Source of the DNA: Bilabrum cf. latius | Taxonomy: Eukaryota | DNA: 64,000 nucleotides | Assembly: GCA_965178125.1 (NCBI GenBank) | Contig: OZ237736.1 | Location: 558,001-622,000, forward strand | Reading direction: 5' to 3' | Shown here: positions 1 to 62,703 of the stretch, one piece after another | Layout of the letters: each line of letters begins with the position of its first letter | How positions within the stretch are numbered: the first letter of the stretch is position 1 | Position numbers and translations under genes: made by a program | Notes under the pieces: generated by a model | Database searches by the model: none | Seen by the model: only the letters and a program-made list of their open reading frames with translations | What the model was told of the DNA's origin: nothing

Positions 1-2468
1 ATTCAGCGCTGAGCGTGCAGGCATCAGGTGCGACCCAGAATGGTGGAGCACATGAAGTCTCGGTCAGCACGGGCAGTTTGAATGATGGTCCTGTGCCGGC
101 AACGTTCGGTGCAATTGCAGGCCCGTACGCCGTCTACAGAGGCATCGTCAACGCCAGAGCATACCCGCCGCCCCCCAATGCCACGCTGCCCGCTGTGTCA
201 GGCGGTCGATGGCTGCCCTACAGGACGCAGGTCTACGGTTACTTCCAGGGCCGTGTGGCAGTGATGGCCGTGTGCGACAATCCTGACGATGTGCCCGTGG
301 ATCCCGGTGTGGAGGCCGCCATGGGTCGGGGCTCGCAGGGCGGGTGGTCGTTGGCAGCGAGCGTGCATCGCATCTGGTACTCTTACTGGCTGGGATATCC
401 TGGTCTAGTCTAGAATGTGTCGGCATTGGTACAGCGTCGGCTGGCTCCAGTGTCAGCTGGTGTGCAGCTGCGTTGGAACGGCGGTAGTACCCGTCTTCCG
501 GTGTCGTATGATGGGAACAGCACAGTTGATAGCTTGGTGCCTCGCATGGAATGCCGATCGGAAGAATCGCCTGGCCTTGGATCTGCCCGCAGCATGTATC
601 GATCTGACTGGGCCCGCCACCTGGGCGCCAGCCGCGCTTCCCTGTGGTTTGACCTGGCGTTTGACCGGAACCGGTGGCCCGCTGCACAATCGTGGATGGG
701 CGAGCACATCGGCCAGGCGCCCGGTGTAGACCATCCCCATCCGTCGAACAAGCAGCTGCGCTGGCTGGAGGATGACTTGCTGGACGATCTGCAGGATATG
801 GCTGGGGAGGGCGACATGGACCAGGTGCGGTCCTGGCGGGTGGAGGTGTTGCAAGTAGATGCGTTGCCCGCTGAGCCTGCCCCATCGGGTGATTCACTGA
901 ATGTGTCCCAGCTGTGGATGCGCCTGTCAGTGCAGGTGCATGTGGGCGAGCCAGATGGGGCCGCTCGGACGCAGGTGGCAGGCATGGCATTCTAGCGGTC
1001 CATGTCGGCTGGGTCGGTGGTGGATCGGGTGGTACCAGTGCTGCGCGGGAATCGCGGGGGAGCTCTCGCAGGCACGTGGCTGCTGGCAGTGGACATGGGT
1101 AGTGTCGGCTATCGCATCCAGCTCCCCTGTCTGCGTTCGTCGGTGGAGGCATACGCCGAAGACTGCAATACCGTCGGGGCGATGTGGATGCATCGGGGCG
1201 CCACGTGGGCACAGCTGCTTGCAGTGACGGCGATGATAGCCTGCAGCATGGTGTACGCGGTGTCATGTTGGTATGCTGTGTGCAGACTGCAGGCTTCGAT
1301 TGACCTGGAGATCATCTCGGCGAGCGCGTGTCGGGTCTGCCGGATGGTGCTGCACTGGGTGCTTGCGGCGCAGCTGGTTCGAGCGCGGCTGGACGGGCCG
1401 GGTGACGTGTGGATCATAGCTCTGAGCCTGGGATTGGTATTGCGCGCGATCCTGATCGGATGCTGTAGAATGGACATTGCCAGTCGGTATGTGTTGGAAT
1501 CAGGTGAACAGCAGTAGCACGGCAGAGCGGGTGCAGTCCATGATGGAAATCAGTACCGGCGCAGGGATGCAGTCGTTCCGGAACCTGGGCTAGCAATCAC
1601 TAGCAAGCATGGAATGCTTTAGGCTGATACACGATCATGGAATGCGGATAGTGGAACAGGTCGGGCAGGAGTCATCAAATCCTTGGTTCTTGTTGAGACG
1701 ACGGTTGGCATAGCAGGGTGCAGGAATCCCAGCGCTGAATCGAAGTGGCCCCGCAATAGCGCTCACAGTAGATTGCGTCGCATTGTGTCGACATTGTCGC
1801 TGGCGTACCCCGTGCGATTGGCATTTATCAGAGTGATGGCCGTGCTGGATTGGGACACCTAGCTGCTGCTAGCATCGAGTTGCATCCAGGGAGGCTCGGG
1901 GTTGCGGAACACTGACAGTCGCGAGGCCCCCCTCATTGAAGAAGATGCGTCGGACCATGATAGAATAGTTGGGTAGATGTTTTCAGACTCCGAGTCGGAC
2001 CTTGTGGTCCCCAGCTCGAACCGCAGGACGGATAGCTCAATTAGAGTAGCGCAGGTTGTTGGAGTACGGGGCGACGATCCCCTAGGTAGAGCAACATCGA
2101 ACCGTTGTCGCTCACATCAGCAGACAACTCTGACCCGTCGCGTACTGTTGGACATCAGTGTGTATGGCTGGTACATGCGGGTAGCGGAGGATCTTGTGCT
2201 GGTAGCTGTCTTAGTGTGGTCGGCATTGTGTACTGCAGGCGTGTGCAAGTGGTCGGCCTGCAGTTGGAATGACATCGGGTCAATCGAGGGCGTGCCTCAG
2301 GAACTGGTGGCCTGGCAGCGAGTGCAAGAGGTTGGGTTGGTGTGGTCAGCTTGCCTGTGCGCAGCATTGATCTCCTTGGCAATAATCGCTATGGGTCTTA
2401 TTGCGGGAATCAACGGACTAGGTGGCATTGTGGCTGCTTCTAAACCTGCGTCAAAGCGGCTGACTTGA
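1..2468 (+). CDS. Array gene copy 1 (5'-partial): large secreted/multi-TM hypothetical protein
   Basis: ORFs 15-413, 417-995, 1002-1517 and 1977-2468 share one frame and are separated only by TAG. The frame ends at TGA 2466-2468. Confidence 0.8.
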
Positions 2469-2668
2469 ATCCGGGTGGACGATCAATGCGAGCGACTTCC
2501 CGACCTGGATAGATCTACCTAAGTGTTGTCTTTACCAGCGCTTGAATCCTTCTCGTATCCCAGTGTTGTTTGACCATTCGTCCGATTTATGCTAAAACTT
2601 GCCCTTTTTGCAGCCACTGATCAATGTCCACTGGCGGCCTTGGTCGTGACGAGAAGGAGGACCAAAAC

Positions 2669-5600
2669 ATGCAGTTGCACATCGAGACGAAAAAGCGCAG
2701 CTTTGGCATGCTTGTGGTATTCCTTGCTGCACTGATACACCACACGAATTCATATACACACTCTTATAGTATTGACTCGTACTAGCCAAGCACCTCATTC
2801 CGGTTTGGCGCTTGCACCAAGGACAAGCGACTGAATTAGTACCGGCTGAGGTCGCAACAGTGTAACTGTAAGGCAAGCCGATGAGTTACGTCATGCTAGC
2901 AAATATCAAAAGATATCCGAATTTTCCGATCGTCGCATTTTCTGTTCGCAGCGACATGGGTTGTGTCAGATGGGGCTTCGAAGCTTGGCATCGCTGAATC
3001 GAATCGAACTGTTAGGATTCTGTCCGCAAGCTCAGCGTTTCGCATGAATACTTCAAGCGATCCATCTCGCTGTGATATGATCTCGCCTCCATGGAACGGT
3101 TGGGGATTGACCCCGAGCTCACAGCATCCGCCCGTGTTCAAACGGTGGCGATGGCTGACTGGCCCCGCAGTTCCGTCCCCAAGCCACGCATCACCATCCG
3201 CGATCAGCTGTAGATCAGCTGGAGAGTCGTTTGTGCCATCAATAGGAGTCCACGTTGCTATGCCAGGAGCAAGCGCGTTCTAGCTGCCCCCTCCCTCTGT
3301 CGAGTTGGTCCCACCGGAGCGCCAGGACCTAGTGTTGCCTCCTGATCGGGTGGCTGAGCCATTCACGGTGGAGGCTTGGTTTACGCAGATACGCACCGGC
3401 GATGGGACAAATATTTTGGGACGACAGCCTAGGACGTACAGCGGTACGCAAGGGTACAGCAACACTATCACTTACACACCGCTGTAGGACACAACCTCGT
3501 TGCAAATACGCGCAATTGAGGTCATACATAACCCATTCAGACTATGTGCGAGCAGCACCATTGTGGTATGCCCTGTGGAGTGGTATGACCCGGCCTGCTC
3601 CCCCATGGACCAGCCTGTCGATCCCAGGGACATCTGTCTGCAGACCACCGTGTGGCCCATCCAGGGGACGGGATACCCAGCTCGTGCTCGGGTTCCCTAT
3701 TCCTCTCGACAGAACCATTCATCTGCAGTGCAGTGCCCCGTGAAGTACACATCGAGGCAGCCCATCGACAAGCTGGCCCCGGCTGGTGGCCCCCTCCCGC
3801 TTCCTGATGAGTACAACACCACGGGAGTGGCGGTGCGCATCACGTCGGCCTGCGTAGACTCTCGAGTGCTGCTGACTCGGCGGCGGGACGGCAACAGCGC
3901 GGCGCAGCAGACAGCCAAGTGGCACCAGTCTCTCACCACGGTATATCCACCCGGCTCTGTGGCTGTGCTGCCGTATGGTGAGGATGTAGAGATCGTGGGC
4001 GAGGCTAAGGACTACGCTTGGCGCGTGAATCGAGGACACGTGCTTGCGTTTGTGTTGGATGTGCCGGCATCGGAGCTGTATCCGTGGAATGTGACATCAC
4101 TGGGTGGCAATGGCAGTGCTGCTACTAGTCCGAAGAGAGATGTGCTCTGCTAGGGCGTATCGGTGAATCCTGGCTAGAAAATGCCGTATGTCCCATCCCG
4201 GGCAGTCTTGCTGGACGATGCGTCTTGCGTGGGTTCCCGCTCCTGCACCCCCGACACGGGCAGCATCACCGACAGGCAGGATCCTCGCATGCAGGCCTTG
4301 CTGAAGCAGTACGCCGAGAGCGATGCTGTCCGAGGGCCATTCCCGAGTGTTCGCGTGGGATGCGCGATCTCGTATGATGTGGACTTCAGCCGGTACCGTA
4401 GCGGGCTGATACCGATGGACATGCCAGCATCGCAGAACGGGATGTCGACAATGTTCGGGGGCAAGGACGCGCCATACAACACTCGCAGCGGCGTTGTGGT
4501 GGCGGACCGAGGGCGGTACGAGCCTCCAGCGAACAATTCAGCGCTGAGTGTGCAGGCATCAGGTGCGACCCAGAATGGTGGAGCACATGAAGTCTCGGTC
4601 AGCACGGGCAGTTTGAATGATGGTCCTGTGCCGGCAACGTTCGGTGCAATCGTAGGCCCGTACGCCGTCTACAGAGGCATCGTCAACGCCAGAGCATACC
4701 CGCTGCCCCCCAATGCCACGCTGCCCGCTGTGTCGGGCGGTCGATGGCTGCCCTACAGGACGCAGGTCTACGGTTACTTCCAGGGCCGTGTGGCAGTGAT
4801 GGCCGTGTGCGACAATCCTGACGATGTGCCCGTGGATCCCGGTGTGGAGGCCGCCATGGGTCGGGGCTCGCGGGGCGGGTGGTCGTTGGCAGCGAGCGTG
4901 CATCGCATCTGGTACTCTTACTGGCTGGGATATCCTGGTCTAGTCCAGAATGTGTCGGCATCGGTACAGCGCCGGCTGGCTGCAGTGCCAGCTGGTGTGC
5001 AGCTGCGTTGGAACGGCGGTAGTACCCGTCTTCCGGTGTCGTATGATGGGAACAGCACGGTTGATAGCTTGGTGCCTCGCATGGAATGCCGATCGGAAGA
5101 ATCGCCTGGCCTTGGATCTGCCCGCAGCATGTATCGATCTGACTGGGCCCGCCACCTGGGCGCCAGCCGCGCTTCCCTGTGGTTTGACCTGGCGTTTGAC
5201 CGGAACCGGTGGCCCGCTGCACAATCGTGGATGGGCCAATACATCGGCCAGGCGCCCGGTGTAGACCATCCCCATCCGTCGAACAAGCAGCTGCGCTGGC
5301 TGGAGGATGACTTGCTGGACGATCTGCAGGATATGGCTGGGGAGGGCGACATGGACCAGGTGCGTTCCTGGCGGGCGGAGGTGTTGCAAGTAGATGCGTT
5401 GCCCGCTGAGCCTGCCCCATCGGGTGATTCACTGAATGTGTCCCAGCTGTGGATGCGCCTGTCAGTGCAGGTGCATGTGGGCGAGCCAGATGGGGCCGCT
5501 CGGACGCAGGTGGCAGGCCTGGCATTCTAGCGGTCCATGTCGGCTGGGTCGGTGGTGGATCGGGTGGTACCAGTGCTGCGTGGGAATCGCGGGGGAGCTC

Positions 5601-7003
5601 TCGCAGGCACGTGGCTGCTGGCAGTGGACATGGGTAGTGTCGGCTATCGCATCCAGCTCCCCTGTCTGCGTTCGTCGGTGGAGGCATACGCCGAAGACTG
5701 CAATACCGTCGGGGCGATGTGGATGCATCGGGGCGCCACGTGGGCACAGCTGCTTGTAGTGACGGCGATGATAGCCTGCAGCATGGTGTACGCGGTGTCA
5801 TGTTGGTATGCTGTGTGCGGACTGCAGGCTTCGATTGACCTGGAGATCATCTCGGCGAGCGCGTGTCGGGTCTGCCGGATGGTGCTGCATTGGGTGCTTG
5901 CAGTGCAGCTGGTTCGAGCGCGGCTGGACGGGCCGGGTGACGTGTGGATCATAGCTCTGAGCCTGGGATTGGTATTGCGCGCGATCCTGATCGGATGCTG
6001 TAGAATGGACATTGCCAGTCGGTATGTGTTGGAATCAGGTGAACAGCAGTAGCACGGCAGAGCGGGTGCAGTCCATGATGGAAATCAGTACCGGCGCAGG
6101 GATGCAGTCGTTCCGGAACCTGGGCCAGCAATCACTAGCAAGCATGGAATGCTTTAGGCTGATACACGATCATGGAATGCGGATAGTGGAACAGGTCGGG
6201 CAGGAGTCATCAAATCCTTGGTTCTTGTTGAGACGACGGTTGGCATAGCAGGGTGCAGGAATCCCAGCGCTGAATCGAAGCGGCCCCGCAATAGCGCTCA
6301 CAGTAGATTGCGTCGCATTGTGTCGACATTGTCGCTGGCGTACCCCGTGCGATTGGCATTTATCAGAGTGATGGCCGTGCTGGATTGGGACACCTAGCTG
6401 CTGCTAGCATCGAGTTGCATCCAGGGAGGCTCGGGGTTGCGGAACACTGACAGTCGCGAGGCCCCCCTCATTGAAGAAGATGCGTCGGACCATGATAGAA
6501 TAGTTGGGTAGATGTTTTCAGACTCCGAGTCGGACCTTGTGGTCCCCAGCTCGAACCGCAGGACGGATAGCTCAATTAGAGTAGCGCAGGTTGTTGGAGT
6601 ACGGGGCGACGATCCCCTAGGTAGAGCAACATCGAACCGTTGTCGCTCACATCAGCAGACAACTCTGACCCGTCGCGTACTGTTGGACATCAGTGTGTAT
6701 GGCTGGTACATGCGGGTAGCGGAGGATCTTGTGCTGGTAGCTGTCTTAGTGTGGTCGGCATTGTGTACTGCAGGCGTGTGCAAGTGGTCGGCTTGCAGTT
6801 GGAATGACATCGGGTCAATCGAGGGCGTGCCTCAGGAACTGGTGGCTTGGTAGCGAGTGCAAGAGGTTGGGTTGGTGTGGTCAGCTTGCCTGTGTGCAGC
6901 ATTGATCTCCTTGGCAATAATCGCTATGGGTCTTATTGCGGGAATCAACGGACTAGGTGGCATTGTGGCTGCTTCCAAACCTGCGTCAAAGCGGCTGACT
7001 TGA
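2669..7003 (+). CDS. Array gene copy 2: ~1,416-aa hypothetical protein with signal-like N-terminus and C-terminal hydrophobic segments (TAG=Gln; intron 2868-2951)
   Basis: ATG 2669 gives MQLHIETKKRSFGMLVVFLAALIHHTNS. An 84-nt GTAAGG...TTCGCAG intron removes the in-frame TGA at 2882. ORFs 2963, 3305, 3500, 4181, 5537 and 6512 are all in frame, with 12 internal TAGs in total. Ends at TGA 7001-7003. Confidence 0.8.
2868..2951 (+). other. Spliceosomal intron of the array gene (also 7403-7486 and 11938-12021)
   Basis: GTAAGG donor and pyrimidine-rich TTTTCTGTTCGCAG acceptor. Removing it joins the signal-peptide exon to the main frame. Confidence 0.7.
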
Positions 7004-7203
7004 ATCCGGGTGGACGATCAATGCGAGCGACTTCCCGACCTGGATAGATCTACCTAAGTGTTGTCTTTACCAGCGCTTGAATCCTTCTCGTATCCCAGTG
7101 TTGTTTGACCATTCGTCCGATTTATGCTAAAACTTGCCCTTTTTGCAGCCACTGATCAATGTCCACTGGCGGCCTTGGTCGTGACGAGAAGGAGGACCAA
7201 AAC

Positions 7204-10200
7204 ATGCAGTTGCACATCAAGACGAAAAAGCGCAGCTTTGGCATGCTTGTGGTATTCCTTGCTGCACTGATACACCACACGAATTCATATACACACTCTT
7301 ATAGTATTGACTCGTACTAGCCAAGCACCTCATTCCAGTTTGGCGCTTGCACCAAGGACAAGCGACTGAATTAGTACCGGCTGAGGTCGCAACAGTGTAA
7401 CTGTAAGGCAAGCCGATGAGTTACGTCATGCTAGCAAATATCAAAAGATATCCGAATTTTCCGATCGTCGCATTTTCTGTTCGCAGCGACATGGGTTGTG
7501 TCAGATGGGGCTTCGAAGCTTGGCATCGCTGAATCGAATCGAACTGTTAGGATTCTGTCCGCAAGCTCAGCGTTTCGCATGAATACTTCAAGCGATCCAT
7601 CTCGCTGTGATATGATCTCGCCTCCATGGAACGGTTGGGGGTTGACCCCGAGCTCACAGCATCCGCCCGTGTTCAAACGGTGGCGATGGCTGACTGGCCC
7701 CGCAGTTCCGTCCCCAAGCCACGCATCACCATCCGCGATCAGCTGTAGATCAGCTGGAGAGTCGTTTGTGCCATCAATAGGAGTCCACTCTTTCATGCCA
7801 GGAGCAAGCGCGTTCTAGCTGCCCCCTCCCTCTGTCGAGTTGGTCCCACCGGAGCGCCAGGACCTAGTGTTGCCTCCTGATCGGGTGGCTGAGCCATTCA
7901 CGGTGGAGGCTTGGTTTACGCAGACACGCACCGGCGATGGGACAAATATTTTGGGACGACAGCCTAGGACGTACAGCGGTACGCAAGGGTACAGCAACAC
8001 TATCACTTACACACCGCTGTAGGACACAACCTCGTTGCAAATACGCGCAATTGAGGTCATACATAACCCATTCAGACTATGTGCGAGCAGCACCATTGTG
8101 GTATGCCCTGTGGAGTGGTATGACCCGGCCTGCTCCCCCATGGACCAGCCTGTCGATCCAAGGGACATCTGTCTGCAGACCACCGTGTGGCCCATCCAGG
8201 GGACGGGATACCCAGCTCGTGCTCGGGTTCCCTATTCCTCTCGACAGAACCAGTCCTCTGCAGTGCAGTGCCCCGTGAAGTACACATCGAGGCAGCCCAT
8301 CGACAAGCTGGCCCCGGCTGGTGGCCCCCTCCCGCTTCCTGATGAGTACAACACCACGGGAGTGGCGGTGCGCATCACGTCGGCCTGCGTAGACTCTCGA
8401 GTGCTGCTGACTCGGCGGCGGGACGGCAACAGCGCGGCGCAGCAGACGGCCAAGTGGCACCAGTCTCTCACCACGGTATACCCACCTGGCTCTGTGGCTG
8501 TGCTGCCGTATGGTGAGGATGTAGAGATCGTGGGCGAGGCTAAGGACTACGCTTGGCGCGTGAATCGGGGACATGTGCTTGCGTTTGTGTTGGATGTGCC
8601 GGCATCGGAGCTGTATCCGTGGAATGTGACATCACTGGGTGGTAATGGCAGTGCTGCTACTAGTCCGAAGAGAGATGTGCTCTGCTAGGGCGTATCGGTG
8701 AATCCTGGCTAGAAAATGCCGTATGTCCCATCCCGGGCAGTCTTGCTGGACGATGCGTCTTGCGTGGGTTCCCGCTCCTGCACCCCCGACACGGGCAGCA
8801 TCACCGACAGGCAGGATCCTCGCATGCAGGCCTTGCTGAAGCAGTACGCCGAGAGCGATGCTGTCCGAGGGCCATTCCCGAGTGTTCGCGTGGGATGCGC
8901 GATCTCGTATGATGTGGACTTCAGCCGGTACCGTAGCGGGCTGATACCGATGGACATGCCAGCATCGCAGAACGGGATGTCGACAATGTTCGGGGGCAAG
9001 GACGCGCCATACAACACTCGCAGCGGCGTTGTGGTGGCGGATCGAGGGCGGTACGAGCCTCCAGCGAACAATTCAGCGCTGAGCGTGCAGGCATCAGGTG
9101 CGACCCAGAATGGTGGAGCACATGAAGTCTCGGTCAGCACGGGCAGTTTGAATGATGGTCCTGTGCCGGCAACGTTCGGTGCAATCGTAGGCCCGTACGC
9201 CGTCTACAGAGGCATCGTCAACGCCAGAGCATACCCGCTGCCCCCCAATGCCACGCTGCCCGCTGTGTCAGGCGGTCGATGGCTGCCCTACAGGACGCAG
9301 GTCTACGGTTACTTCCAGGGCCGTGTGGCAGTGATGGCCGTGTGCGACGATCCTGACGATGTGCCCGTGGATCCCGGTGTGGAGGCCGCCGTGGGTCGGG
9401 GCTCGCGGGGCGGGTGGTCGTTGGCAGCGAGCGTGCATCGCATCTGGTACTCTTACTGGCTGGGATATCCTGGTCTAGTCCAGAATGTGTCGGCATTGGT
9501 ACAGCGTCGGCTGGCTGCAGTGCCAGCTGGTGTGCAGCTGCGTTGGAACGGCGGTAGTACCCGTCTTCCGGTGTCGTATGATGGGAACAGCACGGTTGAT
9601 AGCTTGGTGCCTCGCATGGAATGCCGATCGGAAGAATCGCCTGGCCTTGGATCTGCCCGCAGCATGTATCGATCTGACTGGGCCCGCCACCTGGGCGCCA
9701 GCCGCGCTTCCCTGTGGTTTGACCTGGCGTTTGACCGGAACCGGTGGCCCGCTGCACAATCGTGGATGGGCGAGCACATCGGCCAGGCGCCTGGTGTAGA
9801 CCATCCCCATCCGTCGAACAAGCAGCTGCGCTGGCTGGAGGATGACTTGCTGGACGATCTGCAGGATATGGCTGGGGAGGGCGACATGGACCAGGTGCGT
9901 TCCTGGCGGGTGGAGGTGTTGCAGGTAGACGCGTTGCCCGCTGAGCCTGCCCCATCGGTTGATTCACTGAATGTGTCCCAGCTGTGGATGCGCCTGTCAG
10001 TGCAGGTGCATGTGGGCGAGCCAGATGGGGCCGCTCGGACGCAGGTGGCAGGCCTGGCATTCTAGCGGTCCATGTCGGCTGGGTCGGTGGTGGATCGGGT
10101 GGTACCAGTGCTGCGCGGGAATCGCGGGGGAGCTCTCGCAGGCACGTGGCTGCTGGCAGTGGACATGGGTAGTGTCGGCTATCGCATCCAGCTCCCCTGT

Positions 10201-11538
10201 CTGCGTTCGTCGGTGGAGGCATACGCCGAAGACTGCAATACCGTCGGGGCGATGTGGATGCATCGGGGCGCCACGTGGGCACAGCTGCTTGCAGTGTCGG
10301 CGATGATAGCCTGCAGCATGGTGTACGCGGTGTCATGTTGGTATGCTGTGTGCAGACTGCAGGCTTCGATTGACCTGGAGATCATCTCGGCGAGCGCGTG
10401 TCGGGTCTGCCGGATGGTGCTGCACTGGGTGCTTGCGGCGCAGCTGGTTCGAGCGCGGCTGGACGGGCCGGGTGACGTGTGGATCATAGCTCTGAGCCTG
10501 GCGTTGGTATTGCGTGCGATCCTGATCGGATGCTGTAGAATGGACATTGCCAGTCGGTATGTGTTGGAATCAGGTGAACAGCAGTAGCACGGCAGAGCGG
10601 GTGCAGTCCATGATGGAAATCAGTACCGGCGCAGGGATGCAGTCGTTCCGGAACCTGGGCTAGCAATCACTAGCAAGCATGGAATGCTTTAGGCTGATAC
10701 ACGATCATGGAATGCGGATAGTGGAACAGGTCGGGCAGGAGTCATCAAATCCTTGGTTCTTGTTGAGACGACGGTTGGCATAGCAGGGTGCAGGAATCCC
10801 AGCGCTGAATCGAAGTGGCCCCGCAATAGCGCTCACAGTAGATTGCGTCGCATTGTGTCGACATTGTCGCTGGCGTACCCCGTGCGATTGGCATTTATCA
10901 GAGTGATGGCCGTGCTGGATTGGGACACCTAGCTGCTGCTAGCATCGAGTTGCATCCAGGGAGGCTCGGGGTTGCGGAACACTGACAGTCGCGAGGCCCC
11001 CCTCATTGAAGAAGATGCGTCGGACCATGATAGAATAGTTGGGTAGATGTTTTCAGACTCCGAGTCGGACCTTGTGGTCCCCAGCTCGAACCGCAGGACG
11101 GATAGCTCAATTAGAGTAGCGCAGGTTGTTGGAGTACGGGGCGACGATCCCCTAGGTAGAGCAACATCGAACCGTTGTCGCTCACATCAGCAGACAACTC
11201 TGACCCGTCGCGTACTGTTGGACATCAGTGTGTATGGCTGGTACATGCGGGTAGCGGAGGATCTTGTGCTGGTAGCTGTCTTAGTGTGGTCGGCATTGTG
11301 TACTGCAGGCGTGTGCAAGTGGTCGGCCTGCAGTTGGAATGACATCGGGTCAATCGAGGGCGTGCCTCAGGAACTGGTGGCCTGGCAGCGAGTGCAAGAG
11401 GTTGGGTTGGTGTGGTCAGCTTGCCTGTGCGCAGCATTGATCTCCTTGGCAATAATCGCTATGGGTCTTATTGCGGGAATCAACGGACTAGGTGGCATTG
11501 TGGCTGCTTCTAAACCTGCGTCAAAGCGGCTGACTTGA
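7204..11538 (+). CDS. Array gene copy 3
   Basis: Copy 2 shifted by +4535 with the same structure; TGA at 11536-11538. Confidence 0.8.
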
Positions 11539-11738
11539 ATCCGGGTGGACGATCAATGCGAGCGACTTCCCGACCTGGATAGATCTACCTAAGTGTTGTC
11601 TTTACCAGCGCTTGAATCCTTCTCGTATCCCAGTGTTGTTTGACCATTCGTCCGATTTATGCTAAAACTTGCCCTTTTTGCAGCCACTGATCAATGTCCA
11701 CTGGCGGCCTTGGTCGTGACGAGAAGGAGGACCAAAAC

Positions 11739-14700
11739 ATGCAGTTGCACATCGAGACGAAAAAGCGCAGCTTTGGCATGCTTGTGGTATTCCTTGCTGC
11801 ACTGATACACCACACGAATTCATATACACACTCTTATAGTATTGACTCGTACTAGCCAAGCACCTCATTCCGGTTTGGCGCTTGCACCAAGGACAAGCGA
11901 CTGAATTAGTACCGGCTGAGGTCGCAACAGTGTAACTGTAAGGCAAGCCGATGAGTTACGTCATGCTAGCAAATATCAAAAGATATCCGAATTTTCCGAT
12001 CGTCGCATTTTCTGTTCGCAGCGACATGGGTTGTGTCAGATGGGGCTTCGAAGCTTGGCATCGCTGAATCGAATCGAACTGTTAGGATTCTGTCCGCAAG
12101 CTCAGCGTTTCGCATGAATACTTCAAGCGATCCATCTCGCTGTGATATGATCTCGCCTCCATGGAACGGTTGGGGATTGACCCCGAGCTCACAGCATCCG
12201 CCCGTGTTCAAACGGTGGCGATGGCTGACTGGCCCCGCAGTTCCGTCCCCAAGCCACGCATCACCATCCGCGATCAGCTGTAGATCAGCTGGAGAGTCGT
12301 TTGTGCCATCAATAGGAGTCCACGTTGCTATGCCAGGAGCAAGCGCGTTCTAGCTGCCCCCTCCCTCTGTCGAGTTGGTCCCACCGGAGCGCCAGGACCT
12401 AGTGTTGCCTCCTGATCGGGTGGCTGAGCCATTCACGGTGGAGGCTTGGTTTACGCAGATACGCACCGGCGATGGGACAAATATTTTGGGACGACAGCCT
12501 AGGACGTACAGCGGTACGCAAGGGTACAGCAACACTATCACTTACACACCGCTGTAGGACACAACCTCGTTGCAAATACGCGCAATTGAGGTCATACATA
12601 ACCCATTCAGACTATGTGCGAGCAGCACCATTGTGGTATGCCCTGTGGAGTGGTATGACCCGGCCTGCTCCCCCATGGACCAGCCTGTCGATCCCAGGGA
12701 CATCTGTCTGCAGACCACCGTGTGGCCCATCCAGGGGACGGGATACCCAGCTCGTGCTCGGGTTCCCTATTCCTCTCGACAGAACCATTCATCTGCAGTG
12801 CAGTGCCCCGTGAAGTACACATCGAGGCAGCCCATCGACAAGCTGGCCCCGGCTGGTGGCCCCCTCCCGCTTCCTGATGAGTACAACACCACGGGAGTGG
12901 CGGTGCGCATCACGTCGGCCTGCGTAGACTCTCGAGTGCTGCTGACTCGGCGGCGGGACGGCAACAGCGCGGCGCAGCAGACAGCCAAGTGGCACCAGTC
13001 TCTCACCACGGTATATCCACCCGGCTCTGTGGCTGTGCTGCCGTATGGTGAGGATGTAGAGATCGTGGGCGAGGCTAAGGACTACGCTTGGCGCGTGAAT
13101 CGAGGACACGTGCTTGCGTTTGTGTTGGATGTGCCGGCATCGGAGCTGTATCCGTGGAATGTGACATCACTGGGTGGCAATGGCAGTGCTGCTACTAGTC
13201 CGAAGAGAGATGTGCTCTGCTAGGGCGTATCGGTGAATCCTGGCTAGAAAATGCCGTATGTCCCATCCCGGGCAGTCTTGCTGGACGATGCGTCTTGCGT
13301 GGGTTCCCGCTCCTGCACCCCCGACACGGGCAGCATCACCGACAGGCAGGATCCTCGCATGCAGGCCTTGCTGAAGCAGTACGCCGAGAGCGATGCTGTC
13401 CGAGGGCCATTCCCGAGTGTTCGCGTGGGATGCGCGATCTCGTATGATGTGGACTTCAGCCGGTACCGTAGCGGGCTGATACCGATGGACATGCCAGCAT
13501 CGCAGAACGGGATGTCGACAATGTTCGGGGGCAAGGACGCGCCATACAACACTCGCAGCGGCGTTGTGGTGGCGGACCGAGGGCGGTACGAGCCTCCAGC
13601 GAACAATTCAGCGCTGAGTGTGCAGGCATCAGGTGCGACCCAGAATGGTGGAGCACATGAAGTCTCGGTCAGCACGGGCAGTTTGAATGATGGTCCTGTG
13701 CCGGCAACGTTCGGTGCAATCGTAGGCCCGTACGCCGTCTACAGAGGCATCGTCAACGCCAGAGCATACCCGCTGCCCCCCAATGCCACGCTGCCCGCTG
13801 TGTCGGGCGGTCGATGGCTGCCCTACAGGACGCAGGTCTACGGTTACTTCCAGGGCCGTGTGGCAGTGATGGCCGTGTGCGACAATCCTGACGATGTGCC
13901 CGTGGATCCCGGTGTGGAGGCCGCCATGGGTCGGGGCTCGCGGGGCGGGTGGTCGTTGGCAGCGAGCGTGCATCGCATCTGGTACTCTTACTGGCTGGGA
14001 TATCCCGGTCTAGTCCAGAATGTGTCGGCATCGGTACAGCGCCGGCTGGCTGCAGTGCCAGCTGGTGTGCAGCTGCGTTGGAACGGCGGTAGTACCCGTC
14101 TTCCGGTGTCGTATGATGGGAACAGCACGGTTGATAGCTTGGTGCCTCGCATGGAATGCCGATCGGAAGAATCGCCTGGCCTTGGATCTGCCCGCAGCAT
14201 GTATCGATCTGACTGGGCCCGCCACCTGGGCGCCAGCCGCGCTTCCCTGTGGTTTGACCTGGCGTTTGACCGGAACCGGTGGCCCGCTGCACAATCGTGG
14301 ATGGGCGAGCACATCGGCCAGGCGCCCGGTGTAGACCATCCCCATCCGTCGAACAAGCAGCTGCGCTGGCTGGAGGATGACTTGCTGGACGATCTGCAGG
14401 ATATGGCTGGGGAGGGCGACATGGACCAGGTGCGTTCCTGGCGGGCGGAGGTGTTGCAAGTAGATGCGTTGCCCGCTGAGCCTGCCCCATCGGGTGATTC
14501 ACTGAATGTGTCCCAGCTGTGGATGCGCCTGTCAGTGCAGGTGCATGTGGGCGAGCCAGATGGGGCCGCTCGGACGCAGGTGGCAGGCCTGGCATTCTAG
14601 CGGTCCATGTCGGCTGGGTCGGTGGTGGATCGGGTGGTACCAGTGCTGCGTGGGAATCGCGGGGGAGCTCTCGCAGGCACGTGGCTGCTGGCAGTGGACA

Positions 14701-16058
14701 TGGGTAGTGTCGGCTATCGCATCCAGCTCCCCTGTCTGCGTTCGTCGGTGGAGGCATACGCCGAAGACTGCAATACCGTCGGGGCGATGTGGATGCATCG
14801 GGGCGCCACGTGGGCACAGCTGCTTGCAGTGACGGCGATGATAGCCTGCAGCATGGTGTACGCGGTGTCATGTTGGTATGCTGTGTGCAGACTGCAGGCC
14901 TCGATTGACCTGGAGATCATCTCGGCGAGCGCGTGTCGGGTCTGCCGGATGGTGCTGCACTGGGTGCTTGCAGTGCAGCTGGTTCGAGCGCGGCTGGACG
15001 GGCCGGGTGACGTGTGGATCATAGCTCTGAGCCTGGGATTGGTATTGCGTGCGATCCTGATCGGATGCTGTAGAATGGACATTGCCAGTCGGTATGTGTT
15101 GGAATCAGGTGAACAGCAGTAGCACGGCAGAGCGGGTGCAGTCCATGATGGAAATCAGTACCGGCGCAGGGATGCAGTCGTTCCGGAACCTGGGCCAGCA
15201 ATCACTAGCAAGCATGACACGATCGACAATTTATCGAGTTGGGGTGATACGGATAACTCCACGGTGGTCGGAATTCGATTCGAGTCTAGTGGGCTACGCG
15301 GTGGTACTGCGGAAGACACTTTGGGAATACGAGGCAGCATATCATAGTCTCCAATTGACGGCAGACTGCGCCGTAGATTGCGTCGCATTGTGTCGACATT
15401 GTTGCTGGCGTACCCCGTGCGATTGGCATTTATCAGAGTGATGGCCGTGCTGGATTGGGACACCTAGCTGCTGCTAGCATCAAGTTGCGTACAGGGAGGC
15501 TCGGGGTTGCGGAACACTGACAGTCGCGAGGCCCCCCTCATTGAAGAAGCAGCGGCAGATCAGGATGATCTAGTTGGGTAGATGTTTGAAGAGATGCGTG
15601 AAGTTAATCCTGACGTGTAGACCAGAATGACGCCGCCAAATGTGGATGCGCTACCCGAGTCCCCGGCAGGCCGCAGAGCTGATTTGGGCTCAAGCTCGAG
15701 GACTCCAGCAGATCACTGTCATTCCGACTTACAAAATAAACTCTTTTAGGACGTTAGCATGCACGGCTGGTACATGCGGGTAGCGGAGGATCTTGTGCTG
15801 GTAGCTGTCCTGGTGTGGTCGGCGTTGTGCACTGCAGGCGCGTGCCGGTGGTCGATTTGCAGTTGGCAGGACATCGGGTCAATCGAGAGCGTGCCTCAGG
15901 AACTGGTGGCTTGGTAGCGAGTGCAAGAGGTTGGGTTGGTGTGGTCAGCTTGCCTGTGCGCAGCATTGATCTCGTTGGCTTGTATCGTTAGCACTGTACT
16001 CTGCGAGAACATGCCGCCCCAGGCTAAGTCAGCATTCGAATCGAGATTGGCTCGCTGA
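11739..16058 (+). CDS. Array gene copy 4 with a diverged C-terminal region
   Basis: Matches the other copies to ~15215, then alternates diverged and conserved blocks. The frame stays open (TAG only) to TGA 16056-16058. Confidence 0.75.
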
Positions 16059-16141
16059 GATAAAATCCTGTGGTGATAATGTAGTGCTACGCGCTTGGTT
16101 GTCCGTATGAATGCATTGGAAACAAACAAGTAGCTTCAGTT

Positions 16142-19100
16142 TTAGTCGCTGGTACAGTCCGCGTGATCAATGAACACCGCCGTGGCCACGGCTGGGCCCA
16201 TCAAGCGAAGCTCATCGTTGTACGCAGCCTCCATGCGAAATCGGAGGGACGTGCCGGAGGTCACCCCAAATGAAACATATACCCCGCCCGCCATTTGATC
16301 ACTATCAATGCGCTGTGGCGGGGCGATAGGCCTAAGGCTCGACAACTCCATCGCCTTGACCACCTGGGCTGCACCCGAACGATTCCAGTCGACAACATAC
16401 ACGGTGTACATGAGGCACGTCGCAGCCCCCTCAGGCTCATTGCTTACTACAAGATCGAAGAAAGCACTGCCACCCCCTCCAGAATTGCCAACGATCGAGG
16501 CAGAGCCTAGGGATTGGGCGTGCATCCCAGCCGGTAGTCGAGGGACTCGGGGGTCGTGGTCGCTTTTATCCACCGAGGACCTGTTGAAGACTGTGAAGCA
16601 CAGATTGGGCACAGATGTCGAGCGGCCTTCTCTCTAGCCTTCAGGAATGCTATCGCGGCGCAAGCTAGACTGGTCACAGGGAGACCTTGCTGGGTCGAAA
16701 GGGGGACCAAACACGCTCACACTTGAGGGTGCAGAGATACTCATAACGGGATTCTGCCATTGCCGCACATCAACGCATTGTCCTGACGGTGGCGGTGGAG
16801 ACGGGCACTATCCTGATCTGCACCAGTAGTCTCCATCGTCCCAGTTGATTCGATCGCAGTGCAAGTTCTCAGGAATGGCCCCATTCTCGAGCTGATCGTA
16901 CTTTGGAATGTAGTACGAAATGCGCCCGTCCGACGATAGGTTTCCAGTGGCACCAGTCCAGTCTCCGGCAGCGCTGGCAGTGAATGTGCTCGACCCAACC
17001 TCTTGTTTCACAGTGATTGGAGGTCCGGGCCTCTTGCTCCCGCGGTGGTATCCAGACCAAGTCCCATTAATGAAACACAGAGGCCCTTTTAAGACTGCAC
17101 TGCGCGGCATTGAAGTGCTTGAAATTCGCCCCGTGGTTGATTTTGAAGACGGCGAAATGCTACCATCGCTGCAATTCAGGTTCCACAGGCTGTAGCCCAG
17201 CTCGCCGTACTTCCCCTCCCAGCTCCCAGCTGTCACGTTGTCCGTGCCGATCACCCACCCAGCGTACCCTTCTGATGATAGATCGTCATTTCTTGTCAGG
17301 GCTGCTCGAAGCTAGGCCCGGCTTGCATGCACAGTGTATACCCTGCCAGTTTGAGGTGCTGCACAAGAACTCTCGTCATGGATCCACTCCAAGCGGAGGG
17401 CTGTGTGACCCTTCACAGAGGATACGACTCCAAACAGTCCGTGGTTGTCATGCAAAGAATGATTGCTTTGAACAAGCCAGCTGGAGCTAGCAGTCCTGTG
17501 GGAGTTGCGCACTCGAAGACACGCTGCACCGAGCAGCGGTACGTAAACCTCGCCTGTCGTTCCGGCTGGGCTGTCAATCTCGAGCGTCCCAGCCGAAGTG
17601 TCGACAGAAAACGAGATCGTCCCATGAGGAGTGGGGGATGATCCATTCACAAAGTCCAGCATTTCGGTACAATGCTGAGACGTGATGTTCTGCGTGTTTT
17701 TGGATCGCAAGAGCCACGGCTTTGCCTGCCAGCGGCGCCACCCTGGCTCGATTGGAGACAGACCCAAGGCGTTTTTGCTTAGCCATGCAGTCTATCCGGC
17801 CCCCCAGTTGTGGCACAGGGACGTTCGTTGGTTGAGAGTGTTCGGTGGAGCGTCAAGGTGCTGCATCCAGCCGGACCACTGCCAATCATATCTCTCCCAC
17901 GTGCAGTAGGCTCCTGTCTGGTTTGGCAACAGGAACCACTCTCTGCGAACAAGATCCAGGGCCTCTTTACCCAGTCCTGCCGCCGAAAGTCCACGCAGAA
18001 TGAAGTACGTTGAGAAAGGCGAGTGGGATGGCAGCATAGTTGGGTTGGAGAGCGTCTCCACAAGGACTTGTCGCTGTTGGCTGTTGATGCTGACTCCCGA
18101 GTGCAGAGCAGACGCCGCAGCATGGACCCCGAGCGACAAGTACCAGTCGTTGGGTATATGATGCCGCGTTATGTCCCACAGTTTAGTGGCGTTTGCACTG
18201 AGTGCAGCAGCGGTTGCACTGTCTCCGCCCTTCTGGTACGCTGCCGCGGCTGCTCGCATCGCTGCAACCGCCGAAAACCTGTACACGGATTGGGCCTCGG
18301 GGATGCTGCTTTGCTCGAACCCAAAGCCGATGCGGTCGTCGTCACCCACGAACACGAGGTCAAGCGTTCCATTCAGCGATCCCTGCAGGTTGTCCATTGC
18401 CTGGGAGGCCCGTCGCACCACGAAAGGCTGCATCTCTCGGAGGAAGGTCTAGTTGCCGGTGTGCATGTACACCTCGGCAACCATCTCCATCCATAGGTTC
18501 CAGTACCACTAAATATCGTCGTCATGTTGCCAATTGGAGCTCTTGATAACGTTCAACTCCATAAACTTCTGCTACCCAGCGAATACGGATGCCAGCGTGG
18601 CAAGTCCGCCCGATCCCCTCGGTTGATGAGCTGCGACATAGGCGAAAAAATGAGAAACGGGTTCGTAGAGTGGCTCGCTTAGTTCTATTTGAAATGAAAT
18701 GCATCGTGCTGTCACGGTGGTGTTGCAGTGGCCGATAAAGACCCAATTCCTTGCTCTCAGCGCACAGCTACTCCTCACCTCGCTGGTCAGTGTGTCTGCC
18801 AGCATAGTAGTACGGAGAGTGTCTGCACCTAGGTACCATGCCCTTGTCAACTGCGGGTCGCTGCTCGAAAAGCGGCCTTCTCTGTTTGCCGGTCGCACCT
18901 GGCACACTAGCCGAGCCCCTGTGATCGTCCATGTCTTGCCCGTGCTAGACGCAGGGGCGATGATTCGAGCCACCCGGGCGCCATCAAATAGCTCTGGGTT
19001 AGGCTTACCACCCTGTGCCGTGTCTTCCAATCGGTACACGCCAGGCAATGGCTGGTTCGGTGGCATTGGGACGTTCGAGCAGGCGAAATCCTCACCAAGG

Positions 19101-19543
19101 AGCGACGTGAGCTTGGCGCCCAAGTCGGCACGCGCGAGGTCTGGAGAATCAAACTCAAACCAACCGGCACATTCAGCGGGGAACTCGAGTCGAAGAACAG
19201 TTCCATTTGTACCAACGGTCGCTGCTGCTCCAGGATCTTTGTGCAGAAGGCTGGAGGCGTTCAGAACCGAGCCGGATTCAACTAGAAATGCCACTGGTCT
19301 CATTGCAAAAACTTGTAGCTTCTAAATGCCTGGCATGGGCTGGATCTGCGACCATTGCCAGCCATCGAGTGGATCCTTGGATGCCCCCACAGGCGCACTT
19401 GTTGACGAGTTGAAACTACCACCCGACACCGGACCATAGGGCTCAATTTCGAGGTGGGGAGGTGATAATTCAAGCCACTGAGGAGGAGTAAACCCATGGA
19501 CAGCACACGCTACAACGAATAGAATCAGGGTACGGCACAGCAT
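16142..19543 (-). CDS. Secreted GH78 (alpha-L-rhamnosidase)-like glycoside hydrolase; probable intron 18631-18778; apparent frameshift near 18608 (possible pseudogene)
   Basis: Signal peptide MLCRTLILFVVACAVHG. Family-like motifs FSSSDPQLTRAWYLGADT, (L)INRGDR, GAYCTWERY and SLCHNWGAG.TAWL..ALGLSPIEPGW. ORFs 19322, 18572, 17792, 17312, 16808 and 16142 are in one frame joined by TAG. Ends at TAA 16142-16144. Confidence 0.7.
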
Positions 19544-19703
19544 TGGTCCCGGATTCTCCAACTGCAACTGGGTTCGCATTGTGAAGTGATTGAAGCAAAG
19601 CGGTGATCTGCGCCCCTTGATCAGACACAAGGAATCATACAACAACTTCTAGTGTTGCCGGATCTAGGCAGCAATCGCACCCGACAATGCACTGGCGGAA
19701 ACT

Positions 19704-30158: not shown

Positions 30159-33812
<3,654 letters not shown>

Positions 33813-35892: not shown

Positions 35893-38800
35893 ATGGCGCT
35901 TCATATGACTAGACTATCTGGAGCCAGGCAGCCAAGTTCATCCCATGGTGCTGGTGGGAGATACCGCGGTGGTTCCTCATATGCGGAGAATGCTAGAAGG
36001 TCTGGCATGGTCAATATGACGGCACTCTCCAGAGCAGACGCAGACCAGCAAGAAATGGATCGACGACAAGCTGTTACACGGCGGATTCGAGGACAATTTG
36101 ATGTTTCAGCGGATGATCATGACCTTGGAGCGCCTGTTGCCAATACTCCATCCGGTGGCTGGCACATGCTTCGTGGGATAGCAGCAATGCTAACATTCGG
36201 TGGAAATGGTGACAGACAGAACGACGGCGAAGCTGGAAATGCTTCGGACGGTTCCGACGATATGGTGCAAGCTCTTGATGGTACGGTTGATGTTAAGTCT
36301 CTCCGAGGAAACGAGACAAAGCGCTTGCCGTCTGGCTCAGTTGCCTCTTTAGGTTTTGCTAGCGATTCTGATGATTCCACCGGCAGTCGGACAGCAAGCG
36401 GTAGGTTTGATACCATGGATTAGAATAGCGTGCAGTTCAATAGCGTCGGCGGATCGAGATAGCGTGGACGAAGGCGAATTCGTTCTTCCGGGACGTCTTC
36501 CCAGAGGCAATCCACGGAAGCAGACGCAGCGATTGCCGAGGCGCTCGACATTGGCGAGGAGGGAGGCGGCACCATTTCTGGAGTTCGTGGGCGACTTCGT
36601 TCCATCACTGAACGCGTTGGAGGCGGCAGGCGCTTCAGCACGGTGGCCGGACAGTCCGATGATCCGGAGCTCGCCCAAGCCATCCAGGACGCAACGGCAC
36701 AGCAGAGGGGAGCATCTGGACCAGCGCCAGCTGGGCTGACCACTAGGGCTCTCGCACAGCAGGCTGAGTCTAGACGGTTGCAAGAGCAGGTGCACTAGCG
36801 CAGAATTGCCATGCAGCGCGGCACCAGCCGAAGGCAGCAGCAGCGGCCCTCACGGGGCTCCCAGTTTGGCTCGCGACAGCACACTGGCAATTCCTTTATC
36901 ATGGAGGGAGCAAGCAAGACGCCTTCCTCCGATCGATTGCCTTCGTCAGGAGAGCCGTTGGAGGGGATCGACAACCCAGCAGGCTCACCAGATACCAAGC
37001 GGGGCCCCGGCGGTGCCGAAGCCAAGTATAGGCTTAAGCGGGAAGGCGGCGCACCGCGAGGAGTGCTCAAGAATGCGCCGAGATCCTTGCGAAAAAGGGC
37101 ATCGAGGCGGCGACATAGTAATGCCTCCGACGCCGCAGACTCTGATGCGGTCCTGCATCACCACAAGCAGATTTTCGAGACTATGGACCAGGGTGACGAG
37201 ACCCTCGAGCACGACGACTTGCACAACGCATTCAAGGAAGGCAACCTGCTCGATTCAAATAACGTGAAGGTGGGCCCCTCCTGTCGCGCGCAGGTACAGC
37301 ACCTTATGATTGCCACAAGCTTCGGCGTCGGTCTCGATCTCGGGAACGCCTTGCTGTCGCTTGCTGCCTGCTTCCTCTACGTGATCGAGACATACATGAT
37401 TCCGAACGGGACTGCAGACACGCCCTTCGAAAGAGATGCCGAAACGGTCATCAGCATCAGCGAGATGTCGCTGTCAGCATTCTTTACCGTGGATTTCTTG
37501 CTGCGGCTCTTCATCACAGAGCCATTCTACAACTTTCTGTTGACGTGGAACGCCCTCCTGGACTTGCTCACGATCATCCCAGTGTTTGTGACGGCATTCA
37601 TCACGACGTAGAACACAGACGCTGCCGCTTTTCTGTCGATTCTTGCGCTCGCAAGGGTTTTCAGGGTTCTGCGTATCATAAGGCTGTACCGCACGTTCGA
37701 GGTGAGATTCAGAGATTTGAAAGCAGAGAAGCACCAGTGCCTAGCAAACGGGTGCACGCCAATATATTTCCGTTTCTTTGATCCCTCCCCCCACCTTCGC
37801 AGTACATCGAAAACGAAGTGACAAAGCAGTCAGTGAGGATCGGGCTCACCATCATGAGTCTGCTGTTCGTGGCTGCTGGCCTGTTCCAAATCACGGAGAG
37901 CTTCAATTTTACCGGCGATGAAACAGAAGGCATCAGCTTCTTCGAGTCCCTGTGGTTCTGCGTAGTGACCATTACCACGGTGGGGTACGGTGACGTGGCC
38001 CCAACCAACGACGCTGGCCGGGCTCTAGTGATCATCATCATCCTCACTGCGTTCTTCGCCATCCCTTTGGAGACGAACAAGCTGCTCGAGTTGCTGGCGC
38101 ACCAGTCAGAGTACGCTCTAGCCTACTACACGCCGCCAGAAAAGTCTTCGAGAGAGGCCACATTCGTGCAAGTACTGGTTGTCGGCAACGTCCACTCGGC
38201 GTCAATTCAGGATTTCTTCAGAGAGTTGCTTCACCCCGACCACAGCGTGTCCGTGCATGTCGTGGTGCTACATCCGATGCACCCCTCTGACTACATTTTG
38301 GACATCATGGCAGAGCCCGAGATGGAACAAAAAATCACCTACATCCAGGGGTCGCCCATGCATGGCAAGGACCTCATCAGAGCGCACATCCACACAGCCG
38401 ACGGGTGCTTTATCCTGACCAACAAGCTCACGGTATCGCCGGAGGCAGAGGATGCATCTGCCATGCTCACTGCCCTTGGCATCAAGAAGCACGTGATGTC
38501 GCATGGAGCTCACGATATCAACATGTACATGCAGCTGATCAAGCCTGAATCCAAGAGGCATCTAATGGCTACCATGCCACCGGAGATGAGCCTCACTGTC
38601 GTGTGTACAGAGCAGCTGACGATGAATCTTCTTTCTATGAACGTGGTCTGTCCCGGCTTGAACACGATGTTGTTCAACCTGATGGCCAGTGACGACTCGG
38701 GAGAACCAACTCCTGATGAACTGCTCATTGAAGGGGGGGATCGATTGGAGGACTAGCGGTGGTACCAAGAGTACAGGCGAGGCAAGGGCTTTGAGATCTA

Positions 38801-44800: not shown

Positions 44801-45083
44801 CATTCCCGTGCCCCCGCGCTTTTACAACAAACCGTACCACATGCTCACGTCGTACATGCTTAGGGAGCTGCAGATTGTCCCGCTCGGTTTGTACAGGGGA
44901 GTGTATCGCAGGCACGGGATCGTTTCAGCAGGCAACGACCACCCATACGTGGTCACAAATCCGGACCCTCAATGCGAGATCACTTCCGCTGATGGCGTCT
45001 ACGCACTGGGTCCCATCAAGGATCTTCAGACGATGAAGGCATCTGTCGTCGAGAAGCAGTCTCGGGCCATGGGTGGTCGTTGA
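35893..45083 (+). CDS. BK/Slo-family (RCK-domain) voltage-gated K+ channel, ~3,030 aa; intron 37702-37802
   Basis: TM segments, S4 LARVFRVLRIIRLYR, filter TTVGYGDV (~37974), RCK1 (ITYIQGSPM..DLIRA; EDASAML), RCK2 (GHVIISG; YFVQGSPLSEEALGRAGI; FASGSIF) and C-terminal PLGLYR..YVVTNPDP. Eleven in-frame TAGs. Ends at TGA 45081-45083. Confidence 0.92.
37702..37802 (+). other. Spliceosomal intron (101 nt, phase 0) in the K+ channel gene
   Basis: GAG|GTGAGA...CCTTCGCAG|TAC joins the S4 frame to the S5 frame. Confidence 0.85.
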
Positions 45084-51900: not shown

Positions 51901-52084
51901 TGTATAGTCTGTTATAGTCTGAGCTTGAACCGGAATGAATAGACACAACAGTTTTGCCGCCGGCTAGAATACTGAGATCTTCGCCTGCCTCGTTGATCCC
52001 TCGCACAAGCAAGTTTGTGGCTTCTGCGCGGCTCGCCGATGCTAGTGCTGTAATTGCTAACACAAGCAAGTCAGTTATTGCCAT
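48974..52084 (-). CDS. HGSNAT: Heparan-alpha-glucosaminide N-acetyltransferase-like protein
   Basis: Signal peptide; RVHSVDALRGIALSIMIFVNYGGGGYWWLDHSRWDGLTVADLVFP; RVPGVLQYF; YDPEGLLG; PLCKNVWSPSF; GQNSIVIYAGSEIF[TAG]QFFPF. The C-terminal TM appears only after reading through TAG 49133 and 48995. Ends at TGA 48974-48976. Confidence 0.92.
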
Positions 52085-52203
52085 CGGAAATATTGAAATA
52101 GTATAAGTTGTCTTGATCGGTGTGCTTGATAGGCGAGAGGAAGATCGCAAGCTTCCTTGAGCGGAACCAGTCAACTTGCAGGCGCCGCGCATGTCGACAC
52201 GGA

Positions 52204-61900: not shown

Positions 61901-62703
61901 TGGGCTTGCCGCGCCGCAGGACCGGAGCTTGCTGAGCTGGAGGGTGGATCGTGTCCGGCATGAGCAGATGCAGATGCAATACGGACCAGCGATGATGGAA
62001 GGAGGCAAGACGACGACTTGTTCTGTGAGAGCAGTGCTGAAAGCTCTGACAACCCGCCTCCATGAGTCTGGGATGGAGGCGCGCTCTCGTTTGCAGTGGC
62101 CCCCGTTGCGACGGTTTGCGTTGACGAGCTACTGGAGCTTGAATGCTCGGTTGATTTGCGCGCTTCCCCATCAGCATGAGCTGGTAGACTCAGAGGACGT
62201 GCTTCCCACTCTGCCACTGCCAGTTCACCAGAAGCGTAGTTCAGGCAGCAGAATCCAATCGTTGGCGACGCACCAAGGGTGCACTGCAACGATGCCACGC
62301 TTGGGGCTTGTTGCACGATCCTGTCAAAGCACCCAGAGCACTCCGAGCGTCTCAGGCTTAGCCTACTAGAGGGTAGCAGTGGAGTACCCCCAAATAATCG
62401 AAGCAATTCAAAAGAGCAGCTGGGGCTCGCGTCGACAGCAACCTGCCAGCGCTGCCCATCGCCCTTCGGTGTCCCGCGTCGCTCTGCAGGAGCCAACACC
62501 TGTACCCGTGTGCCATGGTCAAGAACTAGAGCAGTGAGTACTTGTGCGACGGATTTCCGGGACAGTGAGCACTTCAATCCTGTTGTAAGGTTGCCAGTCA
62601 CTGCAATTGCTGCGCCAAGATGCTGCTAGCAACATTTTACATCATGAGGGTGCACTGCAAAGAATGCTCCTTGTTCTTTTGCCAGAAACCTAATTGGCAC
62701 CAT
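58939..62703 (-). CDS. MSH2: DNA mismatch repair MutS homologue, MSH2-like; 5' end uncertain
   Basis: CRTPGGSQLLRQWVTQP, QRDGVHFTT, LRHPVVE..FIPND, Walker A GGPNMGGKSTYIR, SSFMAEMLE, DEIGRGTSTHDGFG, ATHFHEL and SFGIEVA. One frame with 9 TAGs. Ends at TGA 58939-58941. Confidence 0.9.

Follow-up and report, generated by a model that had tools for sequence, protein, structure and literature searches.

Four near-identical copies of a long gene stand head to tail at the start of a 64-kb stretch of DNA from Bilabrum cf. latius (contig OZ237736.1, positions 558,001 to 622,000; hereafter the window), and their reading frames are uninterrupted only when TAG counts as sense. Which amino acid, then, does TAG specify in this genome? 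An earlier note on the same stretch had reported that TAG and CAG replace each other between the gene copies, and had read TAG as glutamine (Gln) from the window alone. The analysis presented here makes it very likely that the organism uses a nuclear code of the NCBI table 15 type, in which UAG is Gln, UGA is the usual terminator and UAA is not a sense codon. We examined stop usage across the window, a ubiquitin carboxyl-terminal hydrolase (USP) gene and its orthologue in a related organism, database fragments, the gene copies themselves, distant homologues and sequence contigs from other studies.

TAG as a sense codon across the window

When the three standard stops are applied, the longest frame in the window has 794 codons. 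When TAG is left open, frames of 600 to 2433 codons tile both strands, and they encode eukaryotic proteins: a USP, an ELO elongase, a Slowpoke-type K+ channel, HGSNAT, an ISN1 nucleotidase, MSH2 and a rhamnosidase-like protein. Thirteen genes together provide 12,917 non-redundant codons, in which 72 TAG were counted in frame against no TAA and no TGA. Decayed pseudogenes are therefore ruled out. The Gln codons of the window comprise 116 CAA and 333 CAG, so that CAA represents 26% of CAR codons; TAG, if counted as Gln, makes up about 14% of the Gln codons (72/521). Had TAA shared the meaning of TAG, the CAA/CAG proportion would predict about 25 in-frame TAA where none is present (P = 1e-11). 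TAA is not a sense codon in the genes of the window.

The 16 frame ends consist of 15 TGA and one TAA, with gene ends defined while TAG was held open, so that any TAG terminator would have been passed over. UGA is a terminator and the usual one in the window. The single frame that closes with TAA does so on the minus strand at 16136-16144, where the sequence reads TAA AAC TGA; a TGA thus lies two codons on and may be the true stop of that gene or a back-up. TAA itself may be a rare stop, or it may be unassigned. The base composition of the window is 59% GC, and its genes are densely packed, with a few short GT-AG introns. Within these 64 kb no tRNA gene, no Rfam match and no eRF1 gene was found.

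Pairing of TAG with Gln in the USP gene and its orthologue

The USP gene (30246..33812, plus strand; Pfam UCH, E = 4e-56) contains nine in-frame TAG codons. One of them, at residue 140 (30663..30665), occupies the position of the invariant Gln of the GY-x-Q-x-D box, as seen in the alignment with the USP15 structure (gyhXhd facing gyqQqd). Gln is present at this position in all 73 homologues that passed our filter, where the window has TAG. By comparison, none of the 66 true Glu sites of these window proteins falls in a column in which Gln is the commonest residue.

A scan of metagenomes with the USP catalytic domain yielded a 3206-bp contig, L001, which is 75% identical to the window gene at the nucleotide level. 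In L001 a single frame runs through 1068 codons, and does so only when TAG is sense; this frame contains 13 TAG, no TAA and no TGA. The code is therefore shared by a related organism. At residue 140 L001 likewise has TAG, its bases 3-5 aligning to 30663-30665. The alignment provides 420 well-aligned columns, 375 of them identical. The two genes differ at 93 of 141 fourfold-degenerate third positions, and synonymous sites are therefore saturated. All five L001 TAGs located in well-aligned columns are opposite CAG in the window (hypergeometric P = 8e-8), whereas no TAG falls opposite any of the columns for Glu (21), Arg (45) or Lys (16). In the other direction, the window TAG at USP residue 370 (31353..31355) is opposite CAG in L001. 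Over all reliable columns, TAG pairs with Gln at seven sites, with Arg at one, and at no site with Leu, Ser or Glu. We regard the comparison with L001 as the decisive evidence that TAG is translated as Gln. The other metagenome loci (L002-L018) are not close relatives. Among them, L012-L017 are intron-rich USP genes in which the TAG within the match lies at an intron end, and they gave no sign of a changed code.

Protein databases hold further pieces of the same genes. P0121, P0124 and P0125 (99-100% identity) are open reading frames (ORFs) of the window organism that are truncated at TAG in public protein sets, and P0372, P0375, P0373 and P0126 end exactly at TAGs of the window. P0122, which is 94% identical to the rhamnosidase-like protein, has Gln where the window has TAG at 19322-19324; its own ORF, read in the standard code, ends at the position of a window CAG, 18899-18901. 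A fragment search with the protein of the tandem copies returned five fragments. P0376, 78% identical to this protein, has Gln at the codon that starts at 6851. The entries P0121-P0126 and P0372-P0376 are genes of the organism or of its relatives, mis-annotated as short standard-code ORFs.

TAG and CAG among the copies of the tandem array

The array occupies positions 1..16058 of the plus strand and is composed of four head-to-tail copies of a 4535-bp unit, the first of which is cut by the window start. Spacing from start to start is 4535 bp and the copies are 98-99% identical to one another according to a repeat search; Tandem Repeats Finder, with its period limit of 500, had overlooked the array. 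In runs X1 and X8, contigs join position 15979 back to 11955, as expected of a tandem array; X1 may be the run from which the assembly was made. Each unit bears one gene of about 1320 codons, and the four ORFs (3-2468, 3044-7003, 7579-11538 and 12114-16058, plus strand), which are open only with TAG as sense, contain 6-12 TAG each. No Pfam family matched the protein, and the gene family is lineage-specific and membrane-protein-like. The copies differ at 60 coding positions, 33 of them third positions and 29 of them synonymous, which shows that the frame is coding. Transitions outnumber transversions 50:12.

Fifteen codon columns of the array hold TAG: nine have it in every copy present, two alternate between TAG and CAG, and four lie in the tail of copy 4. 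The two alternating columns are exactly as the earlier note described them, and both are in the frame of the long ORF. At one codon, TAG in copy 1 (411-413) is replaced by CAG in the other three copies (4946-4948, 9481-9483, 14016-14018). At the other, TAG in copies 2 and 4 (6851-6853, 15915-15917) alternates with CAG in copies 1 and 3 (2316-2318, 11386-11388). The Gln run CAG CAG TAG, which had been pointed out at 1509-1517, is likewise present at 6044, 10579 and 15114, that is in all four copies. In the four columns of the diverged copy 4 tail, TAG is opposite GAC, CCC, AAC and TTG. This 3' end (15150-16058) is strongly diverged from the other three copies; it shows a 6-bp length difference, carries four extra TAG and encodes a different C-terminus.

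The strength of this evidence was evaluated from the rates of change among copies. CAG/TAG columns vary at 2 of 54 positions (3.7%), synonymous third-position C/T sites at 19 of 640 (3.0%) and non-synonymous C/T sites at 11 of 1125 (1.0%). The CAG/TAG share fits the synonymous C/T rate, at which two or more variable columns have a probability of 0.48; with the non-synonymous rate this probability is 0.10. The two events favour synonymy weakly, by only about 3:1. Moreover, since transitions are favoured 50:12, CAG would be the commonest partner of TAG under several meanings of TAG. The array copies by themselves are weak evidence for Gln, suggestive and not conclusive. Hence the earlier assignment of TAG to Gln stands, on the strength of the USP gene, L001 and P0122, while the idea that the array copies suffice for it does not.

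Contigs from other studies

The TAG codons were also followed in contigs from other sequencing studies. Four stretches, 18631-18778, 27673-27769, 27879-27979 and 28088-28195, are missing from contigs of runs X5 and X6; since all four are bounded by GT and AG on the minus strand, these contigs look like spliced RNA. Judged by the spliced joints, X5 and X6 probably derive from RNA. Over 16095-19456 and 30166-31954, the X5 contigs show no difference from the window, TAGs included. X8, from another study, differs at five positions over 11955-15195 of the array. Between 20.6 and 26 kb, coverage by X5 and X6 is close to zero, and this was not used as evidence. The X5 contigs are at odds both with U-to-C editing and with silence of the TAG-bearing genes. 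Of the two observations that the earlier note had named as fatal to its reading, neither was made: the TAG-bearing genes are not unexpressed pseudogenes, as they appear unaltered on spliced, RNA-like contigs, and in reliable columns TAG exchanges with none of TGG, TAC, GAG and TTG.

Distant homologues and points against Gln

Alignments were built with 120 MSH2, 144 rhamnosidase-like and 101 USP homologues, and eight TAG sites passed the filter. Two likelihood models were calibrated on the window's own residues. One of them placed Gln first, narrowly over Ser. The MSH2 TAG columns contain Glu in 91 and Asp in 29 of the 120 homologues. In Protein Data Bank (PDB) alignments of HGSNAT and ISN1, TAGs are opposite one Glu and one Lys, and one site is unaligned. 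Taken alone, the distant-homologue columns were inconclusive and did not separate Gln from Ser, Thr, Asp or Glu. The residues that adjoin TAG provide a different kind of information: they are unlike those that adjoin Glu, by 5-6.5 ln units in a neighbour-residue model. This model excludes the acidic residues and ranks Arg, Lys, Leu, His and Gln together.

Several observations weigh against a Gln code of the proposed type. The commonest residue at the eight filtered TAG sites is Gln only once, and otherwise Glu, Asp, Val, Ala and Ser (once each) and Thr (twice). The other likelihood model, based on the top residue, puts Thr first and Glu slightly over Gln. Homologues of the rhamnosidase-like protein have Val, Ala or Pro opposite the TAGs, and one HGSNAT TAG is opposite Glu in the human protein. 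At USP residue 772 (32559..32561), TAG pairs with Arg (CGT) in L001 and with Glu in P0271 and P0272, two relatives of 51-53% identity. P0373, a paralogue of 73% identity, has Leu and Asn at two TAGs, in a variable stretch with an indel. The decisive comparison involves one gene and one relative, L001. The rhamnosidase-like gene, although rich in TAG, has a frame problem after splicing. UAA as a terminator is supported by one gene, with a TGA two codons later. Finally, neither the tRNA nor the eRF1 gene lies inside the window, which leaves the mechanism to be deduced.

Alternative explanations

TAG could be a sense codon with a meaning other than Gln; Glu is then the strongest candidate, with Leu, Lys, Arg and Ser conceivable. 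The acidic residues opposite TAG in MSH2, the Glu of human HGSNAT and of P0271 and P0272, and the top-residue model all point to Glu. The transition bias would also lead one to expect TAG/CAG exchange even if the residue changed, and UAG is described as Glu, Leu or Ser in other eukaryotes (excerpts of PMC11687900). These arguments have to be set against the L001 comparison, in which TAG meets none of the 21 Glu columns while five of five L001 TAGs meet CAG at saturated synonymous divergence. A TAG also occupies the USP position at which all 73 homologues have Gln, in a class of column that took none of the 66 true Glu sites; an exchange between TAG and GAG was seen in no comparison, and the neighbour context disfavours Glu by the margin given above. 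We consider another amino acid very unlikely. Nor is it probable that the code is ambiguous, with TAG read as Gln inside genes and as a stop in some contexts, as in Condylostoma or karyorelict ciliates. There is room for such a code, since only 16 gene ends are available and these were defined with TAG open. However, no gene of the window needs a TAG stop, as all 16 frames reach TGA or TAA, and the one C-terminus that was checked against a solved homologue, that of HGSNAT, passes a TAG and stops level with the human protein.

The remaining explanations retain TAG as a stop or remove it from the message. If the TAG-bearing frames were pseudogenes or chance open frames, the frame break of the rhamnosidase-like gene after intron removal and the lack of a known domain in the tandem family would be accounted for. 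Decay would scatter all three stops, though, instead of the TAG alone that is found in frame; conserved enzymes carry TAGs, and L001 maintains its 1068-codon frame with 13 of them. The third-position and synonymous excess between array copies and the spliced, RNA-like contigs over the genes run against this explanation as well, to which we attach hardly any weight. A single transition separates every TAG from CAG, which is what C-to-T errors of sequencing or assembly would produce, or what U-to-C editing would correct to CAG in the mRNA. Contigs of runs X5, X6 and X8, from three other studies, nevertheless show no differences over long TAG-bearing pieces, and the spliced X5 contigs keep the T over both of the pieces listed above. 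L001, from an unrelated metagenome, has 13 in-frame TAG of its own, and public standard-code ORF fragments stop exactly at TAGs. Error or editing is thus extremely improbable.

Relation to known codes and proposed mechanism

Reading UAG as Gln without reassignment of UAA is known from the fornicate Iotanema spirale, from Protocruzia tuzeti and from two phyllopharyngean ciliates, Hartmannula sinica and Trochilia petrani (excerpts of PMC11687900, PMC9161772 and PMC5304391). The window resembles these table 15 cases in having TAG in frame in conserved genes and paired with Gln, in the absence of coding TAA, and in the separation of UAG from UAA. It is unlike them in its 59% GC, in its uninterrupted genes of up to 2400 codons and in features that are not ciliate-like. 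Moreover, TGA is the main stop of the window (15/16), whereas UAA is the main stop in the table 15 cases as far as those excerpts describe them.

UAR codons, that is both UAA and UAG, are read as Gln (NCBI table 6) in many ciliates, in Hexamita and Streblomastix, in ulvophycean green algae and in the aphelid Amoeboaphelidium protococcarum, according to excerpts of published work, PMC11687900 and PMC5304391 among it. These codes likewise turn a stop into a Gln codon and keep TGA as a terminator, and the aphelid, a parasite of algae, is not a ciliate. These codes also read TAA as Gln, however, while TAA is absent from the 12,917 codons of the window and from the 1068 of L001. A code of the table 6 type fails for the window because TAA is not sense. 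Other reassignments restricted to UAG or splitting it from UAA are those of the rhizarian exLh (Leu), of Scotinosphaera (Ser) and of the ciliate PL0344 (UAG as Glu, UAA as Lys) (excerpts of PMC11687900 and PMC5304391). In these organisms, as in the window, the meaning of UAG differs from that of UAA, but the amino acid is another. Finally, crAss-like and other gut phages use code 15, with TAG read as Gln by a suppressor tRNA (excerpts of PMC9523058 and PMC10879173). Those phages have low-GC genomes with recoded late genes; the window, by contrast, belongs to a eukaryotic chromosome and carries eukaryotic genes and spliceosomal introns.

The window probably represents a new case of the already described UAG = Gln type of code. 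A further-reaching proposal is that a Gln code restricted to UAG arose here in an independent, as yet undescribed event, in a GC-rich eukaryote outside both the ciliates and the fornicates, with TGA as the near-sole terminator and TAA unassigned; as L001 shares the code, the code would then belong to a clade and not to one strain. We put this forward tentatively, and incline somewhat against it. Only a small number of nuclear codes split UAG from UAA; the excerpts of PMC11687900 list a single fornicate, rhizarian and green alga besides a handful of ciliates. Such codes bear on how eRF1 and tRNAs distinguish the two codons. A new test case would be provided by a lineage that combines high GC, long genes and termination at TGA and that has a living relative with the same code. 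In practical terms, standard-code gene calling breaks the genes of this organism, and the genome needs re-annotation with TAG as Gln.

By analogy with described cases (excerpts of PMC5304391 and PMC9161772), a tRNA-Gln that has CUA as its anticodon would read UAG; the C34 of this tRNA would not pair with UAA. eRF1 would have lost the recognition of UAG; in Iotanema the GTS motif of eRF1 is altered (excerpt of PMC9161772). Under the Gln code, the TAG/CAG differences between the array copies would be synonymous C/T transitions, still ongoing within the family.

Other genes and repeats of the window

The HGSNAT-like acetyltransferase gene (48974..52192, minus strand) has four TAG. One of these, at 48995-48997, lies six codons before the TGA. 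Residue 1070 of the 1072 of the query aligns to residue 661 of the 663 of the human chain, so that the protein ends level with its human counterpart and this TAG is therefore read through. The MSH2-type mismatch-repair gene (58939..62703, minus strand) contains nine in-frame TAG. The Slowpoke-type K+ channel gene, with 11 in-frame TAG, extends over two overlapping frames (35893..45083, plus strand). A pyrimidine run followed by CAG is seen near 37801, and the two frames are probably joined by an intron that ends there.

The rhamnosidase-like gene (16142..19579, minus strand) has eight in-frame TAG after its likely start. Removal of its 148-nt GT..AG intron, the first of the stretches skipped by the contigs and absent from an X5 contig, gives SE-LINRGDR, where homologues have SELMDRGDR, and then a TGA 25 codons on; without splicing, the frame remains open. 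After splicing, the remainder of the conserved domain sits in another frame. This break could be a real frameshift, a sign of a damaged gene or the result of an alternative donor. The other three skipped stretches are GT..AG introns of about 100 nt in an ankyrin-repeat gene (26741-28357, minus strand). The same gene contains 6.3 copies of a 9-bp repeat (CATCGCTGC) at 27181-27237, which encode GSD repeats. The best named protein matches of the window genes are scattered over fungi, fish and oomycetes.

Between these two genes, positions 20428-26663 hold about five tandem copies of a unit of ~1228 bp, which are 62-96% identical and matched no Pfam family in whichever frame they were read. Other parts of the genome carry the unit as well, because the summed contig depth in X1 is 80-180 over it against about 18-20 at neighbouring genes. 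Next to it, at about 19769-20339, lies a very high-copy element, with a summed X1 contig depth of up to 4305 near 20323 compared with about 18 nearby. This element is also deep in X5, X6 and X8, and has loose ends at 19769, 20282, 20325 and 20339.

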